This document shows positions 540 to 51,381 of a stretch of 64,000 bases of DNA, piece by piece. Within the stretch, counting starts at the first letter, position 1. Every line of letters starts with the position of its first letter. A model generated the notes under the pieces. That model had not been told where the DNA came from. It did no database searches and was given only the letters and a program-made list of their open reading frames with translations. Origin of the DNA: an uncultured bacterium (GTDB lineage Bacteria > Patescibacteriota > Minisyncoccia > Phycocordibacterales > GWA1-40-21); NCBI GenBank assembly GCA_963798465.1, contig CAWCTC010000001.1:592465-656464 (forward strand), in the 5' to 3' direction. The position numbers and the translations under genes were made by a program.

Positions 540-722
540 TTATAATCTTCTTCTTCCAACATGCCATCCTCCGCAAAACTTGCACGGATAAAAATGACAT
601 TGCTTGTTCTGGTCTTTTCCGTTTAATCTCAAACCCCGGACATGAAGAAAAGCTGCTTCCTTGCTTTTATGCCGTATCTTTCCTTCACAGCTTCTCCGGC
701 GAATTCTCCGTTTGCTCGCCAT
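540..722 (-). CDS. Small basic Cys-rich (zinc-ribbon-like) protein, 60 aa
   Basis: GGAGG lies 8 nt upstream of ATG 722; the track start at 731 is a GTG abutting the SD. C-terminus is CHFYPCKFCGGWHVG. Its own TTGTAA-N17-TATAGT promoter-like site lies upstream. Confidence 0.6.
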   Translation of the reverse strand: MASKRRIRRRSCEGKIRHKSKEAAFLHVRGLRLNGKDQNKQCHFYPCKFCGGWHVGRRRL

Positions 723-793
723 TTTTTTCACCTCCTCTTCTCAAATTTAATCCAAAAAAAACTATACTCCAAATTTTATATTTTTACAAATAA

Positions 794-837: not shown

Positions 838-993
838 TTATGATTTCTTTTTTCTCGCGGCAAGTAAAGCTCTTGCCACGACTATCATTTCCCTCCTTTG
901 TTTTTTCCCGCTTATCCTGAATAGCTCGCGCCATTCGCGATAAGCAGGAGTTTTTTCAATCTCAGGTTTTTTCTTCCTTTTTTTCTCAGGCAT
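838..993 (-). CDS. Small lysine/arginine-rich protein, 51 aa (below the ORF-track cutoff)
   Basis: ATG at 993 with GGAGG (1003..999) 5 nt upstream. Sequence is MPEKKRKKKPEIEKTPAYREWRELFRISGKKQRREMIVVARALLAARKKKS. It has its own promoter and terminator. Confidence 0.55.
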   Translation of the reverse strand: MPEKKRKKKPEIEKTPAYREWRELFRISGKKQRREMIVVARALLAARKKKS

Positions 994-1026
994 AAAAACC
1001 TCCTTTTTTTTGTTCGTTCGAAAGCT

Positions 1027-1055
1027 ATTATATAGTATAAAACAAATCTTGTCAA
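1027..1055 (-). promoter_or_regulatory. Sigma70-type promoter TTGACA-N17-TATAAT
   Basis: TTGACA at 1055..1050, TATAAT at 1032..1027, exact 17-nt spacer. It drives the 51-aa ORF. Confidence 0.7.
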
Positions 1056-1061
1056 GTAAAA

Positions 1062-3796: not shown

Positions 3797-5831
3797 TTAT
3801 TTTTTCTTTTCCACCCTCTCCTTCAAAACCTTAATCTCATCTCTCAATATCGCCGCGGTTTCAAAATCCAAAATCTTCACCGCTGCGTTCATTTGAATTT
3901 CTTTTTGTTTTATCAGCTTCATTGGGCTCTTTTTCATCATTTCCTCATCAATTCGAACAAGCTCTTTCACGGCTTTGTCATGATCGCTTCTCATATGGTC
4001 TGTGATATCGTGAATCTTTTTGATAATCGTTTTTGGAGTAATGCCGTGCTTTGTATTGTAAGCAATTTGTTTTTCTCTTCTTCTATTTGTCTCACCTATC
4101 GCTCGTTCCATTGAGCCGGTAATACTGTCAGCATAAAGCACCACGCGTCCGAGCAACATTTCTCGCCGCACGTCCGATGGTCTGAATAAGCGAAGTATCG
4201 CTGAACGCAAAAATCCTTCCTTGTCCGCATCAAGAATTCCGATAAATTCAACTTCCGGCAAATCCAAACCTTCTCGCAAAAGGTTTACTCCGACAAGACA
4301 ATCAAACTTCCCTTTTCTGAAAGTTCGTAAGAATATCTATTCTGTCTATTGTTTTTATTTCGCTGTGCAAATATTCTGCTTTCACACCTTTTTCTTTCAA
4401 ATATTCGCTCAAATCTTCCGCCATCTTTTTTGTGAGAGTTGTGGCAATGACTCTTCCGCCGTTTTTCACAACTTTTTCTGTTTCTTCTATAAAATCAAAA
4501 ACTTGAGATTTATTTTTTCCTTTTACTTCGGTAATCGGCTTTACTTCCACAATCGGATCAATCAAGACCAGTCGGACGGATAATTTGCTCCACAATTTTC
4601 TCTGAATTTTCTTTTTCATAATCTCCCGGCGTGGCTGTAGTATAAATAATTTGATTTACTCTTTCTTCAAATTCATCAAACTTCAAAGGTCTGTTGTCTT
4701 TTGCTGATGGAAGACGAAAACCATAGTCAATCAAAGTCTTTTTTCTTGAAGCATCGCCGGCATACATTCCTCTTATCTGAGAAATAGTGACGTGTGATTC
4801 ATCTATAATAGTCAGAAAGTCTGGAGTTCCATCTTCTTTCTTTGGAAAATATTCCAGAAAGTATCTGGTGCTTCGCCCGGTGCTTTGCCGGAAAAATGTC
4901 TTGAATAATTTTCAATTCCATTGCAATAGCCGACTTCTCTTATGAGCGACAAATCGTAAGTTGTTCTTCTTCGAAGTCTTTCTGCTTCAAGATTCTTTCC
5001 CAGCTTTTTTTAATTCTTCAAGTCTGTTCTTCAAGCTCAGCTTTTATACTTTTGAAAGCTCTTTCTTGCTGTTCTTTGTCTGTAATAAAATGTTTTGCAG
5101 GAAAAATAAAAGTTGATTGTATTTCATCTTCAACAAGTTTTCGAGAAACTGAATCAATTCTTGAAATTTTCTTTATTCTATCTTCAGCAAAATCTAAGCG
5201 AATCAAAATCTTTTCATTTACCGGCATGACTTCAATAGAATTTCCAATAGCACGAAAAGTTCCCGGCTTTATATCGGAATTTGTTCTTTCAAAATGAACA
5301 TTGATAAGTTTTTTTATAAGGTCTTGCCTCGTAGTTTTTTCTCCAACTTTCAATTTTAATATTTACTTTTTCATATTCTTCTGGTGAACCCAAACCGTAA
5401 ATACAAGAAACCGATGCGACAATAATCACATCTTTTCTCGTAAGAAGTGCTTGCGTGGAAGCATGGCGAAGTCTGTCTATCTCTTCATTTATCATCGCTT
5501 CCTTTTCAATATAAGTATCGGTGACGGCATATAAGCTTCCGGCTGATAGTAGTCGTAATAAGAAACAAAATAATGCACGGCATTGTCTGGGAAAAATTCT
5601 TTGTACTCTTGTGCGAGCTGAGCTGCGAGAGTTTTGTTGTGAGCGATGACAAGCGTCGGCTTTTGAATTTTTTCAATAACATTTGCAACCGTAAAAGTCT
5701 TTCCGGAGCCAGTAACGCCAAAAAGAGTCTGCTTTTTCAAGACCTTTTTCTAACCCCGCAACCAACTCTTTAATTGCATTCGGTTGATCCCCCGCTGGCT
5801 TATATTCTGCTTTGATTTTGAATTTTGACAT
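3797..5831 (-). pseudogene. uvrB: Excinuclease ABC subunit B, disrupted by about 10 frameshifts
   Basis: Pieces occur in shifting frames: [66 protein letters not shown], and the C-terminal UVR domain. At 4290-4300 an extra A in an A-run breaks QKGKFDCLVGVNLLREG. Confidence 0.85.
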
Positions 5832-6469: not shown

Positions 6470-7384
6470 TTAAGCACATCCAGGACCACAATATCCAGAT
6501 GATATGCGAATACCTCCTGTTGCAGAACCCGTAACCGGAACTAAATTATCTGAACTGTCATAAACTTGTATGTCAGACGAATTGATACTTGAGGAAATAG
6601 AAAACGGTGAATCATCTTTTGAATATATTAAATGTGTTCCTACCGTGTCAACTTTAACAGTAAACTGGCTAGGAATATTTGCCCCAAAGTTAGCGCCAGT
6701 TGTGTTGTCGGGAATAAGAAAAGTTGCAGTATTGCCTGATACTAAAGCGCTAGAGATTGGAGTTGTGTTTCCTTGATACAAATATGCATTAGTAATTTGG
6801 GCTGTACCACTTACATTTTGGGCTGTACCGCTTACATTAAAGTGAACAGTTAAACTATGAAGGTGTAAGGTGTCGTTCTGGCCTCTAACATCAAATATAA
6901 TTACTGGAATCATTGTTACAATACCTGAAGCAGAAGAGGGATTTTTTAAATCAGTATATATTGATGCTGTCGCTGAACTTGTTGTCTCTAACGGTTTACT
7001 GATTGTATTTTGATTAGCTTGTCCCTGTGCTATTTGTGCTGCTTGTTTATCTAACGCAGATTTAACTGCTGCGTCAATTTTTGATTGGGCATCCTCATTT
7101 TGTTGCTGAACAATTTTAGCATCTTCATCCGACTTAGCTTTAATAATGGCTTTTACCTGAGCATCAACTTTGGCTTTTATAATTGTGTCCATATCAACCG
7201 TGCTTGTTGCTTTAGCGATTGTTGATGTGGCAACAGTTGAAGTTGCAACTTTAATTACTTCTGTTTTTATTGGTTTATGAAATACGGACCAAGAAAAAGG
7301 ATTCCACCAAGAAGCAAATGCTAGGTTTGGCAAAATTAAAGAAATAAGCAAAAGAGATAAAACTAATTTATGTATTTTTTTCAC
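6470..7384 (-). CDS. Secreted or surface protein, hypothetical
   Basis: Likely GTG start at 7384 giving MKKIHKLVLSLLLISLILPNLAFA followed by SWWNPFSW. TGGTATAAT lies 7 nt upstream. Contains ST-rich and coiled-coil-like segments and a NVSGTAQ duplication. Confidence 0.6.
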   Translation of the reverse strand: MKKIHKLVLSLLLISLILPNLAFASWWNPFSWSVFHKPIKTEVIKVATSTVATSTIAKATSTVDMDTIIKAKVDAQVKAIIKAKSDEDAKIVQQQNEDAQSKIDAAVKSALDKQAAQIAQGQANQNTISKPLETTSSATASIYTDLKNPSSASGIVTMIPVIIFDVRGQNDTLHLHSLTVHFNVSGTAQNVSGTAQITNAYLYQGNTTPISSALVSGNTATFLIPDNTTGANFGANIPSQFTVKVDTVGTHLIYSKDDSPFSISSSINSSDIQVYDSSDNLVPVTGSATGGIRISSGYCGPGCA

Positions 7385-7407
7385 AAAAGTGATTATACCA
7401 CAAATCA

Positions 7408-8626
<1,219 letters not shown>

Positions 8627-8672
8627 AAGGTTAATATAACACAAAATTACTAGTTAGTAATAATAGTTTGTG

Positions 8673-8801: not shown

Positions 8802-8823
8802 TAAATGATATAATCTAATCAAT

Positions 8824-9630
8824 ATGGAGCAAAAAAGAAAAACTGTCGGCTTAGTGCTTGGAAGCGGAAGCGACCGCGGAATGGCACATATTGGAGTTAT
8901 AAAAACTCTGATTAAAAATAATATTCCGATTGATTATATTTCCGGCACAAGTATCGGCGCCGTTATCGGAGCATATTACGCGCTTCACGGTGAAGTCGAT
9001 ATTCTTGAGGACACTTTCAAGCGTATCATGTCTCGCCCGTGGTATCTGCTCGATTTCGATTTCAAAAAACCGAATTTTCTTTCAAACAGAAATATTTATA
9101 ATCTGTTAAAATTTAATTTCTACAACGACAAAACTTTTTCTGACACAAAAATACCTCTTCGAATAAATGCCACGGATGTAGACTCCGGCAGCCAATATGT
9201 TTTCAAAGACGGAAAAATCATAGACGCCGTCATGTCTTCAATGTCGCTTCCGGGAATATTGCCACCGTATGAAATAGGAGAAAAACATTTGGTTGATGGC
9301 GGACTATCAGATGCAATTCCTGCAGATTTACTTTCTGAATTTAAACCGGATATAATAATAGCTGTAGACCTATATAATACAAAAATAGAACCTCTTTCAA
9401 AATATAATATGAGCACAGTATTGAACAGAGTTTATCAGATATATATTTCAAAACTTTCAGAATTCAGCAAGCAGAATTTCTGCAGAAACTGCGAGAATTA
9501 CATCATCATAAATCCAGATACAAAAGAAAATCTGACAAGCCTGACTTTCAAAAATATAGATAAAAATGTCAAAATCGGGACTGAAGAAACAGAAAAGCAT
9601 ATTGAGGAAATTAAAAAACTGTGCGCCTAA
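8824..9630 (+). CDS. Patatin-like phospholipase
   Basis: GSGSDRG oxyanion motif, GTSIG (GxSxG) nucleophile, DGGLSD catalytic Asp. TGATATAAT lies 9 nt upstream of the ATG. Confidence 0.85.
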   Translation: MEQKRKTVGLVLGSGSDRGMAHIGVIKTLIKNNIPIDYISGTSIGAVIGAYYALHGEVDILEDTFKRIMSRPWYLLDFDFKKPNFLSNRNIYNLLKFNFYNDKTFSDTKIPLRINATDVDSGSQYVFKDGKIIDAVMSSMSLPGILPPYEIGEKHLVDGGLSDAIPADLLSEFKPDIIIAVDLYNTKIEPLSKYNMSTVLNRVYQIYISKLSEFSKQNFCRNCENYIIINPDTKENLTSLTFKNIDKNVKIGTEETEKHIEEIKKLCA

Positions 9631-10161: not shown

Positions 10162-10282
10162 TTTTTTTATATTTTTATAAATGATTAATACTCGTACGAT
10201 TATATCAATTTACAAAAATAAAGCCAATCATTTTTTTAGACTTTCCAAAATAATAAAACAAATGCTATAATCTGCACCACAT

Positions 10283-10972
10283 ATGAATTCAAAAAAAACT
10301 AGCCAAAATTCAGACGACGTGCTTTCTAGAAAAAATATCGAGGAAATTGTCAGCAGGAGGGAAAAAATATCAAATGAAGAATTTGATAAAGGTTATAAGC
10401 TGATTGAAAAATATCCGAGATCTGTAAGTATTCTTGGCTCTGCAAGATTTTCAGAGGACAATCAATATTACAAAAAAGCCAGAATCCTTGGATATAAAAT
10501 AGCAAAAGAGCTCGGATATGCTGTAGTCACCGGCGGAGGTCCTGGAATAATGGAAGCTGCAAATAGAGGCGCATTCGAAGCAGGCGGAGCATCAATAGGA
10601 TTCGGCATCAAGCTTCCAAAAGAACAAAGAGAAAACCAATATCTGACGGATCATGTCGATTTCGAATATTTCTTTTCCCGAAAAACCATTCTCTATTTTT
10701 CAGCCGAAGCATATGTTTACTTTCCAGGCGGTTTCGGAACTCTTGATGAGCTTTTTGAAATACTTACTTTGATACAGACAAAAAAAATAAGCAAAGCTCC
10801 AGTGATACTGGTAGGAAAAAGTTTCTGGACTCCGTTCCTGGAATTATTGAAACAAAAGCTTGCGATAGAAAACGATACAATAGATATGTCTGACACAGAA
10901 ATATACAAGATAGTCGACTCTGAAGATGAAATGATAGAAATAATCAGAAAAGCTCCGTACAGAGAAGAATAG
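10283..10972 (+). CDS. LOG family (TIGR00730) nucleotide phosphoribohydrolase
   Basis: VVTGGGPGIMEAANRGA and PGGFGTLDELFE motifs. Confidence 0.85.
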   Translation: MNSKKTSQNSDDVLSRKNIEEIVSRREKISNEEFDKGYKLIEKYPRSVSILGSARFSEDNQYYKKARILGYKIAKELGYAVVTGGGPGIMEAANRGAFEAGGASIGFGIKLPKEQRENQYLTDHVDFEYFFSRKTILYFSAEAYVYFPGGFGTLDELFEILTLIQTKKISKAPVILVGKSFWTPFLELLKQKLAIENDTIDMSDTEIYKIVDSEDEMIEIIRKAPYREE

Positions 10973-11114: not shown

Positions 11115-11747
11115 TTATTTTTGTATATTTTCCTTTTCTTTATTTATTCTTGCTTTGCGCATCTTATAAAAATGTTCTCCTATTCTTGTAACGATAAAAC
11201 CTATAAAAATCCAAAAAATAATGGAAGTGGAATATCTGAAACCATTCAATTGTATCGCTATTTGAGCCGTATATCTCCTGGCAAAATAACCTATGAGTAT
11301 TATTATCGGCGCGCATAGCATGTTTGCCAAAGAATTGAAAAATAAAAATGTCCTGTCTTTGACTTTCAAATATCCAGAAAATACTGGGCCGACAAATCTC
11401 ATCAAAGGAATGCATCTGAAGACAAAAATAGTCACACCGATATTCTTTTCAAACCAAGCTCTATGCTTGCTTATAAATTTAATTTCAAGAACATCCTGTA
11501 TGAATTTATCCACATACTTATCATTTTTTATCGTCAGTTTAAATACGATAAAATCACTTATTATGAAAGCTACAATTACAAGAATTATTGTAAAAATAAG
11601 ATTTATATAGCCGGTGCTTGCAGCATAGCCGACTGTCAACAGCAAAACTTCTTCAGGAACAGGAATTATATATCCGGAAAAAATTGCCGCTATAAAAATT
11701 CCAAGATATGAAAAATGATGTATAAATACAAAAATCTGCTGTATCAT
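11115..11747 (-). CDS. DedA/VTT-domain membrane protein
   Basis: YLGIFIAAIFSGYIIPVPEEVLLLTVGY and multiple TM helices. GTGCTAGAAT lies 8 nt upstream of the ATG. Confidence 0.75.
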   Translation of the reverse strand: MIQQIFVFIHHFSYLGIFIAAIFSGYIIPVPEEVLLLTVGYAASTGYINLIFTIILVIVAFIISDFIVFKLTIKNDKYVDKFIQDVLEIKFISKHRAWFEKNIGVTIFVFRCIPLMRFVGPVFSGYLKVKDRTFLFFNSLANMLCAPIIILIGYFARRYTAQIAIQLNGFRYSTSIIFWIFIGFIVTRIGEHFYKMRKARINKEKENIQK

Positions 11748-11929
11748 GCTCTGCTATTCTAGCACATCTTTAGAAATTATCTTAAAAACATTTAACATGC
11801 TATAGTCATTAATATTATGGAGGAAGAAAACAGCAAAAAAACCCGCACAGCTTTTTTTAAAATATGATAGCAACGATGAATATAAGACTTTTATAAGATA
11901 ACACGCATAAATTTTAAATTTAAAACATT

Positions 11930-14719: not shown

Positions 14720-14829
14720 TTTTTATTCAAAAACATCATAATGCATATTATACAACATAAACGAAAAACGCACTACAGAAACGCATTTTTGCTCACATTT
14801 TTTTTATTTCCAAAAATATGCACAGATTT

Positions 14830-14921
14830 ACCCGAGAAAATTTTTGTTGATGAAAAAATTATGTATAATTTTTCAGCATTATACTAAGATATATACTGCG
14901 TTAACAAAAACTTTAACGGGT
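14830..14921 (-). repeat. H1 element copy C
   Basis: Arms ACCCGTTAAAGTTTTTGTTAA ... TCAACAAAAATTTTCTCGGGT. Two inner hairpins. The interior carries TAGTATAAT. Confidence 0.6.
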
Positions 14922-14935
14922 GATATAATTGGACC

Positions 14936-15328
14936 ATGAAATTTTTATCGTCTTTTCTCGGCTTCTTGAAATGGCATTATGGCAAAGCCTTAATTTCAAT
15001 TTTTTCATTTTGGAAAAATATTCTTATTTTCCTGTTTAATTTTTTCTCAATAAAAAGTTTAATCGGCAATTTTTTCACTCCATGGAAAAGACTCGCCGAC
15101 AGCTATCCGAAGCATTTTGATCTTGGAGTTTATTTCTCGACTTTCATCGTTAATATCCTGATGAGAATTGTTGGAATAATTTTGAGAACAATACTACTTG
15201 CTATCGGAATTACAACTTGCGCCATTTATATTATTCTTTTACCTTTTACACTTTTGATATGGCTCATATTACCTCCATTTATTGCCGGACTTATCATATA
15301 CGGACTTATACTTTTAATTTTTTCATAA
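14936..15328 (+). CDS. Small polytopic membrane protein, hypothetical
   Basis: Three to four hydrophobic helices. TGATATAAT lies 6 nt upstream of the ATG (leaderless-type arrangement). Confidence 0.6.
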   Translation: MKFLSSFLGFLKWHYGKALISIFSFWKNILIFLFNFFSIKSLIGNFFTPWKRLADSYPKHFDLGVYFSTFIVNILMRIVGIILRTILLAIGITTCAIYIILLPFTLLIWLILPPFIAGLIIYGLILLIFS

Positions 15329-25152: not shown

Positions 25153-25314
25153 TCAATCTTTTTTCTTCATTTCTCTTACTTTAAGATTTTCCTCATATAT
25201 CTTTCTTTTTTCTTCGTCCAAGAAATGCGATATGATCGCGTATTTTCTTCTCGGACGAAAAAACCTTTCCATTGCGTGACAAAACCATTTCCAAAAAATC
25301 TTCAAAGTAGTCAT
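25153..25314 (-). CDS. Small protein, 53 aa
   Basis: AGGAGGAGG lies 5 nt upstream of ATG 25314. Sequence is MTTLKIFWKWFCHAMERFFRPRRKYAIISHFLDEEKRKIYEENLKVREMKKKD. The track start at 25350 is upstream of the SD. Confidence 0.55.
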   Translation of the reverse strand: MTTLKIFWKWFCHAMERFFRPRRKYAIISHFLDEEKRKIYEENLKVREMKKKD

Positions 25315-25377
25315 TTTTCCTCCTCCTATTTTTTTATTTGCATCCGGCAATAGACTAGCACAAAACTATTTTTCTTG

Positions 25378-25527: not shown

Positions 25528-26010
25528 TCAATTCCAGTTTGGATTTACCCCTTTGTTAAAAGATTGTGCAAAAATTTTATCAAGCCATTCCATAGAACTT
25601 GATACTTCGCAGTTAATGCTTTTGACCTTAACTACTTCCCAGTCTTTTGCCACCCTTATGATGAAAATTGAGTCCTGCGGACCAATTTCTTGCTCTAATG
25701 CATTTTTGAATAGTATGTGAGCAAGAATTTGCTTGTCTATCATTATGTCAATTTCTTTTGCCAACTTCTCGACCTTGTCTATTCTGATCATTTGATCATC
25801 AGAATTTATCAGATCAAAAAGCTTTTCATTCATAAGGTTTATTTTCTTTTCGAGAACCGAACTGTAATACACAAAAAGTTTCTTCGTCTCCTCTTTTTGT
25901 ATCACGCCGATCTTTTCTTCAAAGTCTTGCCGCGCCTTTACTGCCGGTTCTCTCACAATATCAAGAGATCTAACTGTTTTAAGCAGATCCTCAATAAATT
26001 TTAGATCCAT
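25528..26010 (-). CDS. Hypothetical protein, 160 aa
   Basis: AAGGTGGTGA SD upstream of ATG 26010. No recognisable motif. Confidence 0.55.
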   Translation of the reverse strand: MDLKFIEDLLKTVRSLDIVREPAVKARQDFEEKIGVIQKEETKKLFVYYSSVLEKKINLMNEKLFDLINSDDQMIRIDKVEKLAKEIDIMIDKQILAHILFKNALEQEIGPQDSIFIIRVAKDWEVVKVKSINCEVSSSMEWLDKIFAQSFNKGVNPNWN

Positions 26011-26084
26011 GGCAAATCACCACCTTTTTTTTATTTAAACAACTTACCGATATATAAATACCACAAAATTACTATCTAGTCAAA

Positions 26085-27660: not shown

Positions 27661-28875
27661 TTATACCACAAATGATTTTTTGCTTTTCCACATTGTAGAA
27701 ATTGCAAAGAAAATAAGTCCCAAAATAACTATTCCGCCGGAAACTAAGAATGCCGTTGTTGAGCCATATGCTTGCCACAAAAATCCGCCACCGATTCCAG
27801 CTATCAAAGCTCCAAAACCAACTGCAGCATTTAAAAGTCCCATCGCACTGCCGCGAACTTCATTGTCAGAAATTTTCGCTGTAAGCGAGCGCTGGACGCC
27901 ATCGGTAAGAGCCGGGAATAAACCGAGCAATAAGAAACTAAAAGCTAGAATCCACGGCGAATGCGCGAGATTCAGGAAAAAATAACTGATCAGAAGAATA
28001 AAGTATCCGATGAATATTATTATCCTTGTGCCGAATTTGTCGCTCATTTTTCCGGCGAACATTGAGAAGCCTGCGTATGAAAGATTATAAATCATGTAAA
28101 AAAGCGGAATGTCGGCAATCATAAGTCCGATTGATTCAGTTTTCAAAAGTATGACGGCTATCGGCAAGCTTCCGATAGATAAAATAAAAATCGCAATGAT
28201 AAATAATTTGAATTTTCCGGAAAGATTTTTGAAGCCCGAAATAAAACTTGTTTTTGCTTTTGCATTTTTAATCGCGACATCCGAAATAAAAAATAAAGTT
28301 AAAATTGTAAAAATTCCAACGACAAACGCCGTCAAAAATACCGTATTGAAATGCAAAGGGTAAAATCTCAAAATCAGATAAGCGACAAGCGGTCCGAGAA
28401 TCGAACCCATTGTGTCCATCGCCCTGTGATATCCGAAAGACCTGCCGAGCTCTTCTTTCGGCGAAGAAAGAGAAATTATCGCATCGCGCGGAGGATCACG
28501 AAATCCCTTTCCTATCCTGTCAGCGACGCGAAGTCCGAGTGCCGCGCCGACTGTTGAAGTAAAAATATAAAAAGGCCTCGTCAGAACAGAAAAAACGTAA
28601 CCGAAAACAATAAGTGGCTTTCTACTTTGGAATTTATCTGAAATAACTCCGGAAAATATTTTGAAAAAATTCGAAAGTCCTTCCGCAACTCCGTCAACGA
28701 GCCCGAGCGAAGCTGCGCCGGCTTTCAAAACAGAAGTGAAAAACGCCGGAAAAACCGCAAAGACCATCTCCGATGAAAAATCATTGAAAAGACTCGTGAG
28801 TCCAAGAAAGAAAATATTTTTCGGGAGTCCCAAAATTCTTTTTTCAGTTTTTATTTCTTGAATCGGCTGTTCCAT
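27661..28875 (-). CDS. MFS transporter
   Basis: About 12 predicted TM helices, and GKMSDKFGTR, a typical MFS loop 2-3-like motif. Confidence 0.75.
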   Translation of the reverse strand: MEQPIQEIKTEKRILGLPKNIFFLGLTSLFNDFSSEMVFAVFPAFFTSVLKAGAASLGLVDGVAEGLSNFFKIFSGVISDKFQSRKPLIVFGYVFSVLTRPFYIFTSTVGAALGLRVADRIGKGFRDPPRDAIISLSSPKEELGRSFGYHRAMDTMGSILGPLVAYLILRFYPLHFNTVFLTAFVVGIFTILTLFFISDVAIKNAKAKTSFISGFKNLSGKFKLFIIAIFILSIGSLPIAVILLKTESIGLMIADIPLFYMIYNLSYAGFSMFAGKMSDKFGTRIIIFIGYFILLISYFFLNLAHSPWILAFSFLLLGLFPALTDGVQRSLTAKISDNEVRGSAMGLLNAAVGFGALIAGIGGGFLWQAYGSTTAFLVSGGIVILGLIFFAISTMWKSKKSFVV

Positions 28876-28884
28876 ATTCTTGAA

Positions 28885-29292
28885 TTATATCATTTTTCTA
28901 TTCATCCAAGTCACGGTCAATTGCAAAACTGTGGCGAAAGAAACCCATAAAAGGTAAGGAATATTCACATAGACAATCCAGCTCACGTAAGGAAAAATCG
29001 CAAGAAAAATCCAAACTATCGTTCCCAGGACCAAAAGAATATCGAGACTGGCGAGATAATTATTCTTCAGGCCGAATTGAATCGGAACAAAAATAAAGTT
29101 GAAAATAAGATTGAGGATGAATGGAAGAAGAACAATGAATGGTATTTCATTTTTGAAAAACAAATAGCCGGCATATCCAAAAGAAATGAATATCAAAACA
29201 TAAAGAAAAGTCCACACCGGACCAAAAAGCCACGCTGGCGGTGCAAATTTCGGTTTTTTGAGTTGTGAGTACCAGGAATATGTAGTGAACAT
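28885..29292 (-). CDS. tspO: TspO/MBR family tryptophan-rich sensory protein
   Basis: WYSQLKKPKFAPPAWLFGPVWTFLY and five hydrophobic helices. Confidence 0.8.
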   Translation of the reverse strand: MFTTYSWYSQLKKPKFAPPAWLFGPVWTFLYVLIFISFGYAGYLFFKNEIPFIVLLPFILNLIFNFIFVPIQFGLKNNYLASLDILLVLGTIVWIFLAIFPYVSWIVYVNIPYLLWVSFATVLQLTVTWMNRKMI

Positions 29293-30886: not shown

Positions 30887-31654
30887 TTATATTAATTTGT
30901 ATAAACCGTTACCAATAAATTCTAAATATTTTTTATTTCTCAAAAATTGCAATTGTTGCCTAATTTTCGGTTTAATATTTTTATTTTCAGGATGAATAAT
31001 TTGCAAATCTTTTTCAAAATTATAAATATCTTGTAAAGAAAACTCTTTCTTTTCTAAAGAATCAATGCAATTCATAATATCCAAAATCCAGCCTTTTGCA
31101 TCTGTCTTTTTAATTTTCTTCAAAAAGACCGTTTTCTGCCATTTTTCTAAAATATCCTTTTTTGAAATTTCTTTTCCATTTTCCACATAAAAAATCTGTC
31201 CCGCTTTTGGTATTTTTAAAAATAAGATATTTGAACCAATCCAACCGGCTCTTCTCGCTGTATTTTTCAGCGGTTTTCTTTTTTCAATAATTTCGGGAAT
31301 GAAAAAATATTTTGGGACAACAAAGAAATCATTTACACTTAGCGATTGCAAATAGGCCATGAAAAATAAATTTGGCTTTTTCGCAGAGTTTATTCTTTCA
31401 ATCATTTTTGAATAAGCTCCTGCAGGAACTTTTTTCCCAATATTCCCTTTCTTTGATTTTAGTTCGAAATCTTCCAGACATTTGTCACAATAAAAATCCG
31501 CAACAGGTTTATTATTATCATATTTTGTAATTTTTAAATTTCCACAATTTGGACAAAATATTTCATTAGAAACCCAACCCTCAGACAAAACACGAGCTTT
31601 TTGAGAAAAAGAATTGTATTTACTTGCCAATTTTACATCAAAAGATAAATTCAT
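30887..31654 (-). CDS. DpnI-family methyl-directed (G-m6A-TC) type IIM restriction endonuclease homolog
   Basis: Similar along its full length to my recollection of S. pneumoniae R.DpnI: SQKARVLSEGWV, FCPNCGN, KPVADFYC..C.EDFELKSKKGN, TARRAGWIGSNI, KGWILDIMNCID, IRQQLQFLR. Confidence 0.8.
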   Translation of the reverse strand: MNLSFDVKLASKYNSFSQKARVLSEGWVSNEIFCPNCGNLKITKYDNNKPVADFYCDKCLEDFELKSKKGNIGKKVPAGAYSKMIERINSAKKPNLFFMAYLQSLSVNDFFVVPKYFFIPEIIEKRKPLKNTARRAGWIGSNILFLKIPKAGQIFYVENGKEISKKDILEKWQKTVFLKKIKKTDAKGWILDIMNCIDSLEKKEFSLQDIYNFEKDLQIIHPENKNIKPKIRQQLQFLRNKKYLEFIGNGLYKLI

Positions 31655-31669
31655 ATAAATCTTAATTAA

Positions 31670-32107
31670 TCAATTTTTCTTTTTAAGAAAATAAACCTTT
31701 ATCACTTGAACAATAATGATAATTAGAGAAATTAAAACAAATAAGATATCAGCAAGTATGAGTACACCTCCCCTAATAGTTATACTCAAGAGAGTACCAT
31801 TGGCGCCAGTATTCGGTGTCAACATGATAAATAAAATAGAAACTGGCAACCAAATACAAGTATATATTATCCACGAACGAAAAACTCTATCATTAAGAAA
31901 ATATGTAATTAAAGAAAATGGAAATATAAATACTGAAATATATGATAAAAAAGTCAAAATAAATGAATTCAATATATCTATTAAAAATCCACAATGCCCA
32001 TTTAAATAGCAATAATTACTTATTTCATCATATCTAAATAGCAAGAAAAAAAATATTAATGTAAAAATAAAAGAAACGATTAAAATAATATTTTTTGTTT
32101 TTTTCAT
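31670..32107 (-). CDS. Four-TM membrane protein, paralog 2 of a tandem pair
   Basis: MKKTKNIILIVS start and IIIVQVIKVYFLKKKN end. Paralogous to 32112..32546. Confidence 0.6.
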   Translation of the reverse strand: MKKTKNIILIVSFIFTLIFFFLLFRYDEISNYCYLNGHCGFLIDILNSFILTFLSYISVFIFPFSLITYFLNDRVFRSWIIYTCIWLPVSILFIMLTPNTGANGTLLSITIRGGVLILADILFVLISLIIIIVQVIKVYFLKKKN

Positions 32108-32111
32108 TTTA

Positions 32112-32546
32112 TTAATTGCTTTTCTTTTTCAAAAAATAAACCTGTATAACTTGAATGATAATTATAATTAAAGAAATAATGAAGAAAAGACAATACATAA
32201 GAAAAGATACAGCGCTATTGCTCAATAAATTTGGGAAATATGATGGACCGCTGGCAAACGAAACGAGAAAAACAAGAAGCATTGTGAGCGGAATCCACCA
32301 ATATGCAAATTTCAGCCAAGCAGAAATAATTTGATCTTTCATAAAATAAGTAATGATAGAGAGAATAAAAGTTGGAAGAGAAATTAAGAGAATAGTTGCA
32401 ATGTTAAATACAATATTTCCACAATCAAAACTATCGGCATAACCTAAAATAACACAAAATTGAGAAGTTGTAATAATATTTATATATATAATTAAGCCGG
32501 CAATAATACCTGAAACTACGAGTATTATATTTTTTGTTTTTTTCAT
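32112..32546 (-). CDS. Four-TM membrane protein, paralog 1 of a tandem pair
   Basis: MKKTKNIILVVS start and IIIIQVIQVYFLKKKSN end. Confidence 0.6.
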   Translation of the reverse strand: MKKTKNIILVVSGIIAGLIIYINIITTSQFCVILGYADSFDCGNIVFNIATILLISLPTFILSIITYFMKDQIISAWLKFAYWWIPLTMLLVFLVSFASGPSYFPNLLSNSAVSFLMYCLFFIISLIIIIIQVIQVYFLKKKSN

Positions 32547-35596: not shown

Positions 35597-35625
35597 TTGA
35601 CCTTTGGTTTAATGTATGCTAATGT
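35597..35625 (+). promoter_or_regulatory. Sigma70-type promoter TTGACC-N17-TAATGT
   Basis: Exact 17-nt spacer. The TTG of the -35 box is the spurious start of track ORF 35597..35836. Confidence 0.6.
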
Positions 35626-35668
35626 ATTAGCGAAGTTATTTAAAATTTATATCAATTGGGAGGTTTCT

Positions 35669-35836
35669 ATGGTCATTTCAAAGGAAGATTTAGAAACAAA
35701 AGCAAGGAAAGATAAGAAAAGTTTCATCGGTAAAATCACCGACCTTCAGAAAAAAATCAAAGAAGAAACGGTAAAAGAAAACTTCCCGACAAAATTCCAC
35801 GGGAGCACGGTTGGCGACGCTATGCCGGCTGACTAA
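35669..35836 (+). CDS. Small protein, 55 aa
   Basis: GGGAGG lies 5 nt upstream of ATG 35669. Sequence is MVISKEDLETKARKDKKSFIGKITDLQKKIKEETVKENFPTKFHGSTVGDAMPAD. Confidence 0.55.
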   Translation: MVISKEDLETKARKDKKSFIGKITDLQKKIKEETVKENFPTKFHGSTVGDAMPAD

Positions 35837-35854
35837 TCTCCCAAAAACTAATTA

Positions 35855-35888
35855 AACCTCAAGGTATAAACCTTGAGGTTTTCTTTTT
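35855..35888 (+). terminator. Intrinsic terminator
   Basis: AACCTCAAGG ... CCTTGAGGTT + a T-rich run. Confidence 0.8.
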
Positions 35889-36016: not shown

Positions 36017-36044
36017 TTGACAAGATTTATTAATATGTTATCAT
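36017..36044 (+). promoter_or_regulatory. Sigma70-type promoter TTGACA-N16-TATCAT
   Basis: Read directly; upstream of the 45-aa ORF. Confidence 0.55.
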
Positions 36045-36089
36045 GTTGGCAGGAAATAAGAACAAATAAAATAAAAACGGGAGGCTATC

Positions 36090-36227
36090 ATGGCAAAGTT
36101 ATTAAAGTTTTTTTTCGGAAAGAAAAAAGTAATAGACACGGGAGCATTCATGGTGATTGAGGACTACTCACCCGAGGCCGTGACAAATAGGCTGGTAGAA
36201 ACATGGAGAAAGGAGAAAGCTGCCTAG
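36090..36227 (+). CDS. Small protein, 45 aa
   Basis: GGGAGG lies 5 nt upstream of ATG 36090. Sequence is MAKLLKFFFGKKKVIDTGAFMVIEDYSPEAVTNRLVETWRKEKAA. Confidence 0.5.
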   Translation: MAKLLKFFFGKKKVIDTGAFMVIEDYSPEAVTNRLVETWRKEKAA

Positions 36228-36236
36228 CCGACGGCC

Positions 36237-36285
36237 AAAACCGGTGAGCGAAAATTTCTTTAAGAAATTTTCGCTCACCGGTTTT
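36237..36285 (+). terminator. Very strong intrinsic terminator
   Basis: AAAACCGGTGAGCGAAAATTTCTT / AAGAAATTTTCGCTCACCGGTTTT, a stem of more than 20 bp. Confidence 0.85.
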
Positions 36286-36317: not shown

Positions 36318-36359
36318 TCATGAGTGAAAGAACAAATTTTTTTCAAAGGAGGAAAAATC

Positions 36360-36416
36360 ATGCCAAATGATGAAGATTTTTTTAAGAGGTGGCTCAAATT
36401 ACTTTTCAGAAGGTAA
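36360..36416 (+). CDS. Micro-ORF, 18 aa, amphipathic
   Basis: AAGGAGG lies 7 nt upstream of ATG 36360. Sequence is MPNDEDFFKRWLKLLFRR. Flanked by the ECF-type promoter and its own terminator. Confidence 0.45.
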   Translation: MPNDEDFFKRWLKLLFRR

Positions 36417-36433
36417 ATGAGCTTCGTCTTAAA

Positions 36434-36466
36434 AGCCCGCACGAAACAAAACGTGCGGGCTTTTTC
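36434..36466 (+). terminator. Intrinsic terminator
   Basis: AGCCCGCACG-AAACAAAA-CGTGCGGGCT + T5. Confidence 0.8.
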
Positions 36467-37482: not shown

Positions 37483-37992
37483 GTGAAAGAAAAATTTATA
37501 TCACTTTACAACAAGCTTTCGGATTCCGTATTCAGATACTGCCTTTTCAGAGTATCCGACAGAGATTCTGCACTTGATATCACCCAAGAAACTTTTACAA
37601 AATATTGGGATGCGCTTGCCGGAGGCCAGAAAATAAATAATGACAGAGCGCTCATATTCACCATCGCGAGAAATTTGATAATTGACCATTACAGAAAAAA
37701 GAAATCAGTTTCGCTTGAAGCGATGACGGAAACGGAGGATGGAGAAAATTTCGAGGATTTTATCCTGGTGGAAGACAACAAAAAATACGAAATCGAATTG
37801 GAAACGGAAGCAAGATTTTTGATCAACAAGATAATTGAATTGCCAAAATCATACCAGCAAGTCGTCTATCTCAGATTCGTCGAAGATTTGAAACCGGATG
37901 AAATAGCAAAAATTCTCGGAATATCAGTGAGCGCAGCTTCGGTAAGAATCCACAGAGGAATTGAAGAATTGAAAAAATTGACGGGATACTAA
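37483..37992 (+). CDS. ECF (group 4) sigma-70 family RNA polymerase sigma factor
   Basis: Region 2 (SALDITQETFTKYW, IFTIARNLIIDHYRKK) and region 4 (YQQVVYLRFVEDLKPDEIAKILGISVSAASVRIHRG). Confidence 0.8.
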   Translation: MKEKFISLYNKLSDSVFRYCLFRVSDRDSALDITQETFTKYWDALAGGQKINNDRALIFTIARNLIIDHYRKKKSVSLEAMTETEDGENFEDFILVEDNKKYEIELETEARFLINKIIELPKSYQQVVYLRFVEDLKPDEIAKILGISVSAASVRIHRGIEELKKLTGY

Positions 37993-38001
37993 AAATAAAA
38001 A

Positions 38002-38112
38002 TACTTGTCCCGTTATAAATAACGAGATAAATCAAAATAAAGTTTAAATAAAATTTAAAGATAAGCATAATCAGGTCGACAAATATTAGAAGCATAAAAA
38101 TTTATAACTGGG
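38002..38112 (+). promoter_or_regulatory. H3 intercistronic element copy 2
   Basis: TACTTGTCCCGTTATAAATAACGAGAT ... ATTTATAACTGGG abuts ATG 38113. ACGGGAT (37981), ACGAGAT (38022) and ACTGGGAT (38107) are all complementary to the single TCCCGT. Confidence 0.5.
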
Positions 38113-38862
38113 ATGGAAGATAAAAAATTAAAAAATGTAATAGGCCAGATAAAAAAAGTTTCTCTTTCGCAAGATGAGAAAAGCAAGATTTTGCATAATC
38201 TTTCTGTCTACGCCGATTTTCACAGAGCGATATTGAGCCCGTCTTCGCTGTTTTCATATTTTAAAAATTCAAATAAAAAATTCGCATATGTTTTGGCTTC
38301 CGTAATCATACTCATACTCGCCGGAGGAACAGCAGTTTACGCATCGGAAGATTCCCTTCCCGGAGATTTGCTCTACCCTATCAAAACAAAAGTTGTCGAA
38401 CCGATTAAAGTCGCTTTGGCAACAACTCCGGCAGCAAAAGCTGATGTCGAAGCAAGTTTGGCTGTCGAAAGATTGAAAGAAGCAGAAACTTTAGATCAAA
38501 AAGGCAAATTAACTCCCAATATTAAAAAAGAAATAGATGGAAACCTATCAAATGACATGTCTAATTTTTTCAAAATAAAAAATCAGATGGAAGGAACAAC
38601 GACTGACAGCACAAGTTCTGAAATTGAAAATACAAAAATAAAAGCTGAATTTGAAAATAGGCTAGGATCTCATAAAGAGATGTTCAATAAATTGAATCAT
38701 GAAAATTCATATAATCCAGCACAAAAAATGTTCCAAGCGACATCAACCGGAACTTCGACAAATTCATATATCAGAGGAAACGCAAAAAATATGAAAATGC
38801 CTGATAGCAGAAGCACGAGCTCAGGATATACGAAAGAAAATCCATTTCAAAACAATTATTAA
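38113..38862 (+). CDS. Putative anti-sigma factor (single TM helix, DUF5667-like extracytoplasmic domain)
   Basis: Position immediately after the ECF sigma gene. TM helix FAYVLASVIILILAGGTAVYA, then LPGDLLYPIKTKVVEPIKV. Confidence 0.45.
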   Translation: MEDKKLKNVIGQIKKVSLSQDEKSKILHNLSVYADFHRAILSPSSLFSYFKNSNKKFAYVLASVIILILAGGTAVYASEDSLPGDLLYPIKTKVVEPIKVALATTPAAKADVEASLAVERLKEAETLDQKGKLTPNIKKEIDGNLSNDMSNFFKIKNQMEGTTTDSTSSEIENTKIKAEFENRLGSHKEMFNKLNHENSYNPAQKMFQATSTGTSTNSYIRGNAKNMKMPDSRSTSSGYTKENPFQNNY

Positions 38863-39368: not shown

Positions 39369-39485
39369 TTATAAGTTTTTTCTCTTTCTATTTGCGATTC
39401 TTGCATTTTTTGTTGCAAGTCTCTTCGTTGTCTTTTTAGAACGAGAAGCCTTATTTTTAGTATTTACTGCCATTCTTTTTGCCAT
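39369..39485 (-). CDS. Unlisted small basic protein, 38 aa, with bL34-like C-terminal motif
   Basis: MAKRMAVNTKNKASRSKKTTKRLATKNARIANRKRKNL. RLATKNAR resembles the RMATKNGR core of ribosomal protein L34. TATAAT lies 9 nt upstream of the ATG, and a terminator follows directly. Confidence 0.4.
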   Translation of the reverse strand: MAKRMAVNTKNKASRSKKTTKRLATKNARIANRKRKNL

Positions 39486-39574
39486 AATGAAAGTATTATA
39501 TACGAAAAAATAAATAATAGCAATATGGTTTTTATATAATGCAAAAAAATTAATTTGGTGATAATCTTATATTC

Positions 39575-40879
39575 ATGCGGAACAATATTGTATTTGAAGG
39601 CGCAGACCAGCTTACCTATGAAATCAGGGAAATTGTTGATATCGCAGAAAAAATTGAAAAAACCGGAGTAAAAATTGTCTGGAATAATATCGGCGATCCA
39701 GTCGCAAAAGGCGAAAAAATTCCAGAATGGATAAAAGAAATTGTCGCAGAAACAGTAAAAAATGACGACAAAAGTTATGCATATTCGCCCACTCGCGGAC
39801 TTCTGGCGACAAGAGAATATATTGCAAAAGAAAGAAATCTTGAAGGCGGAATACAAATCACTCCAGAAGATATTTTATTTTTCAATGGACTTGGAGATGC
39901 AATTTCAAAAGTTTATACATATTTAAATTCAAAAACTCGAGTCATCGGACCAAATCCTGCTTACTCAACTCACTCAAGTGCTGAAGCTGGACATGCCGAT
40001 GCTCCACACATCACTTACAAACTTGATCCAAACAATCATTGGTATCCAGATCTCGATGACATGCGCACAAAAATCAAAGCTAATAAAAATATTTGCGGAA
40101 TTTTGATAATCAATCCCGACAATCCGACAGGAATGGTTTATCCGCAAGAAATTTTGAAAAAAATTGTCGACATCGCTCGCGAGTTCAAACTTTTTATAAT
40201 TTCCGACGAAATTTATTCAAATCTTTTTTATGGAGTCGAGCACAAAAAACTCGCATCAGTCATCGGCGAAGTTCCAGGACTTGCGCTTCGCGGAATTTCA
40301 AAAGAATTTCCTTGGCCAGGTTCTCGTTGTGGCTGGGCTGAATTTTATAATTGCGATAAAGACAAAGACTTCGCAAGATATGCAAAAACTTTACTCGATG
40401 CAAAAAGACTTGAAGTCTGCTCGACAACTTTGCCTCAAAAAGTTTTGCCAAAAGTCATGAGCGATACACGATATTATCCATACTTAGCCGAGAGAAATAA
40501 AATTTATCAGAAAAAATCAGAAATTGCTTACGAAAGTTTTTCAAAAATTCCTGAGCTCATAGTTCACAAACCAAACGGCGCATATTACATGACAATAGTT
40601 TTTAAAAATGGAGTTTTAAACAACAAACAGAAACTTCTGCCAGCAAATCCTGGAGCTTGGAAAATAATAGAAGGGATTTCTGAAACAGATAAGCTTGATA
40701 AGCGTTTTGTATATCAGCTTCTAGCTTCAAAAGGAATTTGTGTAGTTCCCCTTTCTTCTGGCTTCAATTCTGATCTATATGGATTCAGAATTGTTCTGCT
40801 TGAACCAGATGAAAAAAAATTTAAACAAAATATAGAAACAATTGCGGATGCAATTAAAGAATATTTAAAAAGTAAATAA
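39575..40879 (+). CDS. Class I/II pyridoxal-phosphate aminotransferase (AlaA-like)
   Basis: Y..S.G, INPDNPTG, ISDEIY, SKEFPWPGSRCGW (PLP lysine context). Confidence 0.75.
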   Translation: MRNNIVFEGADQLTYEIREIVDIAEKIEKTGVKIVWNNIGDPVAKGEKIPEWIKEIVAETVKNDDKSYAYSPTRGLLATREYIAKERNLEGGIQITPEDILFFNGLGDAISKVYTYLNSKTRVIGPNPAYSTHSSAEAGHADAPHITYKLDPNNHWYPDLDDMRTKIKANKNICGILIINPDNPTGMVYPQEILKKIVDIAREFKLFIISDEIYSNLFYGVEHKKLASVIGEVPGLALRGISKEFPWPGSRCGWAEFYNCDKDKDFARYAKTLLDAKRLEVCSTTLPQKVLPKVMSDTRYYPYLAERNKIYQKKSEIAYESFSKIPELIVHKPNGAYYMTIVFKNGVLNNKQKLLPANPGAWKIIEGISETDKLDKRFVYQLLASKGICVVPLSSGFNSDLYGFRIVLLEPDEKKFKQNIETIADAIKEYLKSK

Positions 40880-43597: not shown

Positions 43598-43730
43598 ACC
43601 CGCTAAAGTTTTTGCTGACGTGTTGAAAATGAAAATTTATTAGATTTATCTTTAGTATAAGGTTGTCTATATAAAATAAACATATTCATATAATCTCAAC
43701 ACATTTTCATCAGCAAAAATTTTCTCGGGT
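43598..43730 (+). repeat. H1 element copy D, 10 nt upstream of the ppdK start
   Basis: Arms ACCCGCTAAAGTTTTTGCTGA ... TCAGCAAAAATTTTCTCGGGT. The interior contains TCATATAAT (43689..43694) and a bulged extension TGAAAATG/CATTTTCA. Confidence 0.6.
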
Positions 43731-43739
43731 AAAAAATCA

Positions 43740-46489: not shown

Positions 46490-46584
46490 ATTATTTATAA
46501 AGTAGTACACTTATTCTAAATCAGTTCTTTATAATTCTCTCAAATGAGAGATTAAATATAAAAATCCTTAAGGAGGTTTTGCTT

Positions 46585-46833: not shown

Positions 46834-46891
46834 TCAAAAAGGAGAACAAAATGAAAAAAATGGAAGATAAATGGAATGCATAAAGCATTTC

Positions 46892-46924
46892 AAAAAACCG
46901 CTAGAAAAATTAGCGGCTTTTTTT
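46892..46924. terminator. Bidirectional terminator
   Basis: AAAAAACCGCTA-GAAAAAT-TAGCGGCTTTTTTT. Confidence 0.7.
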
Positions 46925-49222: not shown

Positions 49223-49224
49223 TT

Positions 49225-51373: not shown

Positions 51374-51381
51374 TCATTCAA

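Follow-up and report, generated by a model that had tools for sequence, protein, structure and literature searches.

Shine-Dalgarno sites confined to small orphan cassettes in a genomic window of a Paceibacterota bacterium

Mixtures of leaderless and Shine-Dalgarno (SD)-led genes, as well as genomes that are poor in SD sites, have already been described in bacteria. Here we report on a stretch of 64,000 nucleotides (nt) of bacterial DNA (contig CAWCTC010000001.1, positions 592,465 to 656,464; referred to as the window), in which strong SD sites stand only in front of small orphan open reading frames (ORFs) that have their own terminators, while the ordinary genes have none and many of them carry a promoter-like -10 box directly before the start codon. 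The restriction of SD sites to orphan cassettes in a bacterium of the candidate phyla radiation (CPR) appears to be a new combination, as our literature searches found no paper on leaderless geometry in CPR bacteria or on SD sites limited to orphan cassettes.

Among the described systems, one close counterpart is “group C” of the GeneMarkS-2 classification (Actinobacteria and Deinococcus-Thermus), in which leaderless transcription is mixed with SD-led genes (PMC6028130). As in that group, a Pribnow box is found 6–8 (up to about 10) nt before the start of many operon-first genes in the window, and leaderless-type and SD-led genes are present in one genome. However, leadered and operon-internal genes of group C carry SD sites, while here none of 34 tight junctions and no Pfam-annotated gene has one, genes with a -10 box 25–42 nt upstream lack them as well, and SD sites are confined to small monocistronic orphan cassettes. 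Moreover, Actinobacteria and Deinococcus-Thermus are GC-rich, whereas the genome of the window is AT-rich and its -10 boxes are TG-extended.

The window also resembles the SD-poor translation of Bacteroidota (“group B”), with SD sites scarce genome-wide, A-rich and G-poor positions before the starts, and a minority of genes with strong SD sites. The promoter consensus of Bacteroidota differs from the sigma70 type, whereas the promoters predicted here are of the sigma70 type (TTGACA/TGnTATAAT), many of them abutting the start, and the SD-led exceptions are orphan cassettes instead of an autoregulatory ribosomal-protein gene. As units, the cassettes recall phage “morons”, which are autonomous promoter-ORF-terminator units of deviant composition located between conserved genes. 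Like morons, they have their own predicted promoter and intrinsic terminator and a deviant codon usage and GC content at third codon positions (GC3), they are inserted between conserved syntenic genes with presence/absence polymorphism in close relatives, and one family is phage-borne. Unlike morons, they lie in the chromosome backbone by rpsP, khpA, trmD and ABC-F genes with no recognisable prophage, integrase or structural genes nearby, and their hallmark is an SD site that the rest of the genome lacks. Finally, the CCTCCT motif is reported to have been lost from the 16S rRNA of about half of Parcubacteria, in a study that did not analyse mRNA starts (Tsurumaki et al. 2022, PMC9297842). The window belongs to the same superphylum and shares the lesser reliance on SD pairing, but differs in that one gene class keeps conserved strong SD sites, which match the canonical tail over as many as 10 nt.

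The window has a GC content of 35%. Its pyruvate phosphate dikinase (PPDK) has its best match in a metagenome-assembled genome of Candidatus Paceibacterota (79% identity), while the next-best matches reach at most 67% and come from other phyla; TrmD homologues at 71–95% identity are numerous, and the named ones are from Paceibacterota, Pacebacteria or Minisyncoccia. On these grounds the window was assigned to a Parcubacteria-group CPR bacterium. It was compared with L081, a related strain of about 90% nucleotide identity; with L087–L090, the 20-kb syntenic loci of four relatives whose TrmD is 74–84% identical; and with L093, a further related locus carrying a homologue of a cassette protein of 160 amino acids (aa). 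The SD score is the duplex energy between the last 20 nt before the start and the 16S tail ACCUCCUUU, and exact SD complementarity was measured against the reverse complement of the 16S tail (GATCACCTCCTTTCT); the tail used for scoring is the canonical sequence. Rfam and tRNA scans of the window gave no match, an Rfam scan of five related loci gave tRNAs only, and no rRNA is found in the window or the related loci.

The SD duplex energies in the window are bimodal. None of the 60 long ORFs, including 19 operon-internal genes, has an SD site (all above -7.5 kcal/mol and most above -4), while eleven small ORFs of 18–160 aa lie at -8.1 to -13.2 kcal/mol, and strong values are found only on such small ORFs. 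All twelve SD sites listed in the original prediction are present; the ORFs that follow those at 46851 and 36360 have just 10 and 18 codons, respectively. They belong to the following cassettes:

540–735, minus strand: AGGAGGTGA, 5 nt, ATG 722, 60-aa Cys-rich protein, terminator
838–1060, minus strand: TTGACA-17-TATAAT, leader of about 26 nt, AAAGGAGGT, 4 nt, ATG 993, 51-aa basic protein, terminator
25153–25330, minus strand: AGGAGGAGG, 4 nt, ATG 25314, 53-aa protein, terminator
25528–26030, minus strand: GGTGGTGAT, 5 nt, ATG 26010, 160-aa protein, terminator
35600–35881, plus strand: TTGACC-type promoter, GGGAGGT, 4 nt, ATG 35669, 55-aa protein, terminator
36017–36284, plus strand: TTGACA-16-TGtTATCAT, GGGAGG, 5 nt, ATG 36090, 45-aa protein, terminator with a 20-bp stem
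36345–36464, plus strand: AAAGGAGG, 7 nt, ATG 36360, 18-codon ORF of uncertain coding status, terminator
46569–46916, plus strand: AAGGAGGT, 7 nt, ATG 46585, 82-aa protein, doubtful 10-codon ORF (46851), terminator
58580–59180, plus strand: TTGACA-16-TAGTAT, leader of about 70 nt, AAGGAGG, 4 nt, ATG 58682, 153-aa protein, terminator
60200–60560, plus strand: TTGACT-16-TAATAT, GGGGTGAG, ATG 60268, 83-aa protein, terminator
60575–60910, plus strand: TTGACC-17-TAGTAT, GGGAGGTGAT, 4 nt, ATG 60643, 76-aa protein, terminator

The promoter sequence of the 36090 cassette is the top consensus match of its region, and the 83-aa cassette is inserted between khpA and trmD on the opposite strand. Outside the long genes, 12 of the 16 GGAGG words are followed by ATG (within 3–8 nt), compared with 9 of 51 inside them (within 3–10 nt; Fisher p=4.6e-5). 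Exact complementarity of 5–10 nt with spacers of 4–7 nt is present in 17 of 18 SD-led ORFs; the exception is 60268, whose GGGGTGAG pairs only via a G-U pair or a mismatch (-8.1 kcal/mol). The SD words, for example AGGAGGTGA, GGAGGTGAT and AAAGGAGGT, and AAGGAGGTGA in L087, jointly span AAAGGAGGTGAT.

Each SD-led ORF is monocistronic, and all eleven have a private terminator (a GC-rich hairpin and a T-run at most 110 nt downstream), which is the case for only 18 of the 60 other genes (p=1.4e-5); in the scanned region there are 25 terminator-like sites against 9.0 ± 3.1 in shuffles. A predicted promoter, with a -35 hexamer matching TTGACA at four or more of six positions and lying 16–17 nt before a -10-like box, was found for about 7 of the 11, and five of these hexamers are TTGAC-type; two of the promoters have 11–12 of 12 matches, although such consensus matches are not enriched over shuffles. 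The -10-like boxes of these predicted promoters end 33–77 nt before ATG. The SD-led ORFs deviate from the long genes in GC3 (0.39 versus 0.30, p=0.0016) and in codon log-odds, the fit to core usage (0.19 versus 0.34, p=4e-4), and the overall GC content of the cassettes (0.32–0.44) is near the genome value. In about 10 of the 11, codon scoring favours the annotated frame over the others. The possibility that these ORFs are pseudogene fragments was considered and rejected, as complete private signals are present.

None of the ten SD-led proteins tested has a Pfam or NCBIfam match, while 46 of the 60 long ORFs have Pfam domains (p=5e-6), a count that includes Pif1, TrmD, KhpA and S16 as taken from annotations. 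The SD-led proteins are mutually unrelated, and the single family hit in searches of Pfam, PHROGs and NCBIfam was phrog_14788, matched by the 60-aa protein (MASKRRIRRRSC...CGGWHVG), which has homologues in 14 IMG/VR contigs. For the 83-aa ORF a word-indexed search found no homologue. Identical copies of this ORF occur in 49 blocks of the metagenome assembly collection, the longest of the contigs being 349 kb. A comparison with 1.84 billion representative proteins yielded only 7 remote homologues of the 160-aa family, each of them full-length, and a Foldseek search of the PDB with its AlphaFold2 model (predicted local distance difference test score, pLDDT, 77.6) gave no match below E=0.9. Exact-protein look-ups of the products of 540–722 and 1542–2282 returned no record.

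The same association recurs in the relatives. In L087–L090, 8 of the 80 called genes are SD-led, and a Pfam family is found in none of these 8 but in 56 of the 72 SD-less genes (p=2.5e-5). All 8 have terminator-like hairpins, and they occupy the same variable slots, namely smc-rnr, khpA-trmD, downstream of pif1 and upstream of rpmF. L093 contains four SD-led orphans beside SD-less genes for ABC-F, a DEAD helicase and a DUF2127 protein. As a result, no Pfam family is found in any of the 12 SD-led genes of the five related loci, and the association between SD sites and the lack of a Pfam family, pooled with L093, has p=7e-13. The prediction that SD sites are restricted to small ORFs of unknown function with their own, putative, promoter and their own terminator holds in the window and is replicated in the five related loci. 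The association is one-way, since orphans and strain-specific genes may also be leaderless-type (14936, 6470–7384 and 39485 in the window); a strain-specific 108-aa membrane protein of L081, for instance, carries TGATATAAT-6-ATG.

An import of the cassettes had been proposed as one of two options, and part of this proposal stands, namely the deviant GC3 and codon usage, the strain-variable content and the one phage-borne family. Cassette content at fixed syntenic slots differs between strains and species. Moreover, the 1.4-kb segment 60008–61405, which comprises two SD cassettes and khpA, is 98–100% identical to L081 2741–4139, while the flanking pif1, trmD, rpsP and rnr are 89–92% identical between the window and L081, which suggests a recent recombination or a gene-specific sweep. 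Together with the higher GC3 and poorer core codon fit, the match of the 60-aa ORF to a phage family and viral contigs, and the 83-aa ORF without homologues found, such strain-variable presence and near-identity amid about 90% identity elsewhere would also fit a pure import, in which the cassettes are recent acquisitions from SD-using phages or bacteria, with unameliorated foreign signals and no host role.

What speaks against a mere relic is the persistence of the SD sites. A homologue of the 160-aa protein at 42% identity has the same exoX...ABC-F neighbourhood, and the homologue in L093 (38% identity), on the other side of ABC-F, is preceded by GGAGGTGAT and followed by a terminator. The 153-aa ORF (58682–59143) and the 130-aa allele of L081 (1258–1650) occupy the same locus at 24.5% identity, and their leader, SD, termini and AAGGAGGaagtATG start region are conserved; such hypervariable alleles suggest diversifying selection or allelic replacement. 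In addition, viral homologues of the 60-aa gene (GC 43–69%) mostly lack a strong SD. Because the SD is kept in the 38% homologue and in the 24.5% alleles, and the phage homologues mostly have no strong one, we consider it to be selected and maintained in this lineage; on the sequence evidence, the cassette SD is not just a relic of import. The SD-led class is also present in every related locus examined, and the GC content of the cassettes stays near that of the genome, so that pure import seems unlikely to us. No phage genes were found near the cassettes, whose neighbours are rpsP, khpA, trmD, pif1, ABC-F, exoX, PPDK and GH130 genes.

We turn to the genes that have no SD. Their missing SD sites are not due to wrong start calls, because an SD-like site precedes only 3 of the 153 alternative in-frame downstream starts of long genes, two of them within the conserved N-terminus of PPDK. 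At tight same-strand junctions (-19 to +25 nt) no SD was found, either in the window (0/19) or in the relatives (0/15). Many ordinary genes either have a good -10 box 25–42 nt upstream or themselves lie 0–25 nt behind the preceding gene, and have no SD. Where SD-less genes have no near-start box (78 genes), A predominates at positions -6, -5 and -3 (56–63% A) and G is scarce; with regard to a shared non-SD motif of the GeneMarkS-2 group B type, A-richness and G depletion are seen but no discrete motif was derived. Two initiation regimes, as originally counted, are therefore too few. There are at least three classes, the third consisting of SD-less genes with short A-rich leaders and of those at tight operon junctions.

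Genes with a -10 box adjoining the start codon are the following, the last three being conserved in orthologous loci:

7382–7400, minus strand: TGGTATAAT at 7400–7392, 7-nt spacer cactttt, GTG 7384–7382, 304-aa secreted-type protein
8806–8826, plus strand: TGATATAAT, 9 nt, ATG, patatin-like phospholipase
10263–10285, plus strand: TGCTATAAT, 11 nt, ATG, LOG-family protein
11745–11764, minus strand: TGCTAGAAT, 8 nt, ATG, DedA/VTT membrane protein
14921–14938, plus strand: TGATATAAT, 6 nt, ATG, 130-aa protein with no Pfam match
28870–28892, minus strand: TGATATAAT, 8 nt, ATG, MFS transporter (absent from the original prediction)
39480–39500, minus strand: TATAAT, 9 nt, ATG, 38-aa highly basic ORF (39369–39485)
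39560–39580, plus strand: GATAAT, 9 nt, ATG, class I/II aminotransferase
51345–51387, plus strand: TTGATA-N17-TATAAT, 8 nt, ATG, HAD/PMM-type hydrolase
56836–56856, minus strand: TGATATCAT, 6 nt, ATG, 190-aa coiled-coil protein
58527–58555, minus strand: TGATAAAAT, 8 nt, ATG, Pif1 helicase; box invariant in six orthologous loci
61984–62008, minus strand: TGTTAGTAT, 7 nt, ATG 61992, ribosomal protein S16 (rpsP); box conserved in six loci
62156–62184, plus strand: TGCTATGCT, 10 nt, ATG, RNase R (rnr), divergent from S16; box conserved in six loci

All nine sites of this kind that had been listed are present, with motif and spacing as given, and the SD duplex energy is above -4 kcal/mol for all the listed near-start-box genes. 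The starts of the patatin-like and HAD/PMM-type genes are fixed because their Pfam domains begin at residues 10 and 9, respectively, and the former also has an in-frame stop 18 nt upstream of its ATG. The box of the MFS transporter sits within the 3' end of the preceding gene, at a 9-nt junction. The 38-aa basic ORF, with the sequence MAKRMAVNTKNKASRSKKTTKRLATKNARIANRKRKNL, has no Pfam match and looks like a small ribosome- or nucleic-acid-binding protein.

The box of the 304-aa protein gene, at the site originally flagged as 7385–7397, lies directly after the tgt stop codon (7405–7407). The longest ORF at this site has its first codon at ATG 7408, which shares an ATGA with the last tgt fragment. 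We prefer GTG 7384 as the likely start codon, because it puts a canonical signal peptide (VKKIHKLVLSLLLISLIL / VKKIHKLVLSLLLISLILPNLAFA) at the N-terminus and leaves a 20-nt intergenic spacer that contains exactly the extended -10 box.

Eleven of the 20 TG-extended -10-like boxes in the window (binomial p=4e-4) and 17 of the 25 in four related loci (p=1.7e-7) lie 5–11 nt before a start, with a peak at 6–9 nt. The exact word TGNTATAAT is found 14 times, a modest over-representation against about 9 expected from base composition, and 13 of these copies lie outside genes or at very gene ends; five are 6–11 nt and five 25–42 nt upstream of the start of a long ORF, the others lying at greater distances. 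A near-start box is present in 42 of the 92 transcription-unit-first non-SD genes (about 45%). The gaps agree with those of leaderless genes in Mycobacterium, where the -10 gap is 6–8 nt (Lomsadze et al. 2018, PMC6028130).

We aligned the regions upstream of pif1, rnr and rpsP from six loci that represent five species-level lineages. Apart from the ATG and the codons that open the reading frame, hardly any column is invariant except those of the TGnTAnnnT box, which is separated from the ATG by 6–10 nt, while the flanking sequence has diverged; the others are a short run of T ahead of the rpsP box and, upstream of rnr, two isolated A columns. A TTGAC-type -35 element at the right spacing upstream of the rpsP box is kept in the alignment. 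In L081 the start codons of the divergent rpsP and rnr are only about 60 nt apart, and little space is therefore left for leaders. Among the listed metagenome matches to the pattern TGTTAGTAT-N(0-30)-ATGTTAATAAT, 6 are true S16 genes, with a gap of 7 or 11 nt, and the rest are mostly unrelated. The orthologue alignments are the strongest evidence that the near-start boxes are promoters, and the leaderless-type geometry first noticed in single genes is backed both by them and by the positional enrichment.

The boxes could instead represent an A/U-rich, SD-independent ribosome-binding or enhancer motif on leadered mRNAs, as in GeneMarkS-2 “group B”. The upstream regions of all SD-less genes are indeed A/T-rich, a box at a gap of 5–11 nt is also seen in 9 of the 34 operon-internal genes, and the generic promoter scan finds no excess over shuffles. 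However, the conserved columns are exactly T-G-n-T-A-n-n-n-T, as read by sigma70 region 2/3, and not a general A/U signal; the TG extension is strongly position-specific, the S16 box has its -35 element at the right spacing, and TGnTATAAT also lies 25–42 nt upstream of other genes, where only a promoter is possible. We hold this motif reading to be improbable.

That the pattern is an artefact of chance TATAAT words in AT-rich DNA, miscalled starts that hide SD sites and spurious GGAGG-ATG ORFs is very improbable and has been largely refuted. The low GC content, the modest excess of the exact word and the frameshifts in the assembly could be taken that way. In fact, uvrB, tgt, pif1 and rnr are each broken into 2–4 overlapping ORFs in different frames (3797–5740, 7405–8644, 56958–58538 and 62175–63666), and pif1 and rnr are unbroken in related strains; the split genes are either pseudogenes or the result of assembly indel errors. 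Against an artefact stand the significant positional tests, the boxes conserved in orthologues, the near absence of SD sites at alternative starts, the best-scoring annotated frame and private terminator of the small ORFs, the full-length conservation of the 160-aa family and the identical calling of the 83-aa ORF in the 49 metagenome blocks. An alternative genetic code was also considered for the split genes and rejected, as the breaks are frame changes rather than in-frame stops.

The explanation that we favour, and consider reasonably probable, is that SD-independent initiation is the default in this lineage and that the canonical SD, under selection, is kept for small self-contained orphan cassettes. 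About 45% of the unit-first genes have a sigma70-type, usually TG-extended, -10 box 6–11 nt before the start codon, and transcription would start no more than about 4 nt from the AUG or GUG, giving leaderless or near-leaderless mRNAs that would therefore need no SD. Other first genes would have SD-less leaders of about 20–40 nt, A-rich and G-poor before the start, a length that we infer because good -10 boxes lie 25–42 nt upstream. Operon-internal genes, at -4 to +25 nt from the previous stop, would probably be translated by re-initiation or coupling. The ribosome would keep a canonical anti-SD tail, which only one gene class would use; judging from the mRNA side, the lineage probably still has the anti-SD, because SD sites that could pair over as many as 10 nt are retained and conserved. 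The cassettes would follow a common plan, with a TTGAC-type -35 element and a -10 box, the latter 33–77 nt before ATG, a leader, a strong SD 4–7 nt before ATG, the ORF and an intrinsic terminator. They may be regarded as “moron-like”, that is, as unrelated, fast-evolving units in variable islands between conserved genes which are exchanged between strains; the full signal set would let them be expressed at any landing site, and selection would retain the SD.

Several points weigh against this explanation. First, no more than 48% of the 16S genes of Parcubacteria were found to carry the anti-SD motif (Tsurumaki et al. 2022, PMC9297842). Second, the viral homologues that mostly have no strong SD leave the origin of the cassette SD unexplained, and the ORFs of 10 and 18 codons might not be real genes. 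Third, near-start boxes are found in 46% of unit-first and 26% of operon-internal genes, a difference short of significance (p=0.07); in this AT-rich DNA, scanning for a generic -35/-10 consensus gives no enrichment of hits over shuffles (46 versus 39.4 ± 6.4); and some near-start boxes are at junctions of 9–16 nt (2536 and 27661), where read-through transcripts are also expected. Fourth, several genes of the window assembly are frameshifted, and some start and ORF calls may be affected. The leaderless call itself is drawn from geometry and conservation only, and literature searches found no transcription-start data for Paceibacterota.

The split between the classes could also reflect regulation, with anti-SD availability or a masking factor (as bS21 in Bacteroidia) toggling between housekeeping and SD-led translation, for instance between free-living and host-attached states. 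Bacteroidia sequester their anti-SD and retain a strong SD on rpsU. In the window and its relatives the class split is sharp and conserved, the SD is retained despite strong protein divergence, and the promoter types differ, a TTGAC -35 element with a leader on one side and a TG-extended -10 box abutting the start on the other. The window has no relevant ribosomal or factor gene, though, and the heterogeneous, unrelated cassettes fit opportunistic self-sufficient units equally well, so that such a partition is rather doubtful. It is with the same strong reserve that we mention a wider conjecture, in which Paceibacteria would have two separable translation channels. One, independent of the SD (leaderless mRNAs, A-rich leaders and re-initiation), would cover the housekeeping genes, the SD/anti-SD one being reserved for a large pool of mobile, fast-evolving small orphan proteins; at about one cassette per 6–10 kb, this pool could reach 100 or more per genome, assuming a genome of about 1 Mb. 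Control of the anti-SD could then switch these proteins as a block, for example at host attachment.

If SD-independent initiation is the default and the cassettes keep the SD, gene finders that reward SD sites would mis-set starts and might over- or under-call small CPR genes, and the knowledge that ordinary genes are SD-less and often leaderless would improve CPR annotation. A strong SD with a private promoter and terminator would provide a simple signature for fast-evolving accessory small proteins of episymbionts, and the proteins picked out by it would be candidates for host-interaction, immunity or phage-derived functions. The partitioning and evolution of initiation mechanisms could well be studied in a lineage whose anti-SD serves just a few per cent of the genes, and promoter and ribosome-binding-site designs for Patescibacteria genetic tools would follow.

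Some further features of the window were noted. The starts of PPDK and trmD, and in L088 that of xfp, are immediately preceded by a conserved motif of about 25 nt, (T)CATCAGCAAAAATTTTCTCGGGTAAA. Motifs of this type were found at:

43700–43739, plus strand
60012–60050, minus strand
14827–14865, minus strand
13455–13490 of L088

The related AAAWTTTATAACTGGGATG precedes a ClpB-like gene (15445) and a DUF5667 gene (38113); the motif is neither an SD nor a standard -10 box. An insertion of about 140 bp resembling a miniature inverted-repeat transposable element (MITE) lies at 59869–60007 on the minus strand, exactly at the trmD start codon. It has 21-nt terminal inverted repeats (CAGGGTAGTAGAATTTCAAAT / ATTTGAAATTTCACTACCCTG), is absent from L081 and appears to duplicate TGAA, changing ATG to GTG. 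Palindromic repeats of the repetitive extragenic palindrome (REP)/MITE-like kind form two families, TTCCCGCCTTCGCGGGAATGAC and GCTTCGCTCGCAAAGACA, mostly as inverted intergenic pairs, with copies at 23099, 23148, 24931, 25021, 62056, 62105 and 63245, and at 8673, 8784, 61427 and 61506. The copy at 63245 lies within rnr, and the rnr product of L081 contains ...DSRLHGNDN..., which, judged by eye, may be the repeat read in frame.

Two adjacent ORFs on the minus strand (30887–32546; 144 and 145 aa, with an MKKT start and no Pfam match) are followed by a gene for a DpnI-like methyl-directed restriction enzyme. At 37483–38862 on the plus strand, an ECF-type sigma factor gene with a GTG start is followed by the DUF5667 gene; the two may be a sigma/anti-sigma pair, with a possible tie to CTGGG/CTCGGG motifs. 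Finally, 47309–51117 on the minus strand holds two tandem genes of about 630 aa, in which a long N-terminal extension is fused to a GH130 (mannoside phosphorylase) domain, and this pair adjoins genes for PMM/HAD, a mannose-6-P isomerase-like protein, acetate kinase and phosphoketolase.

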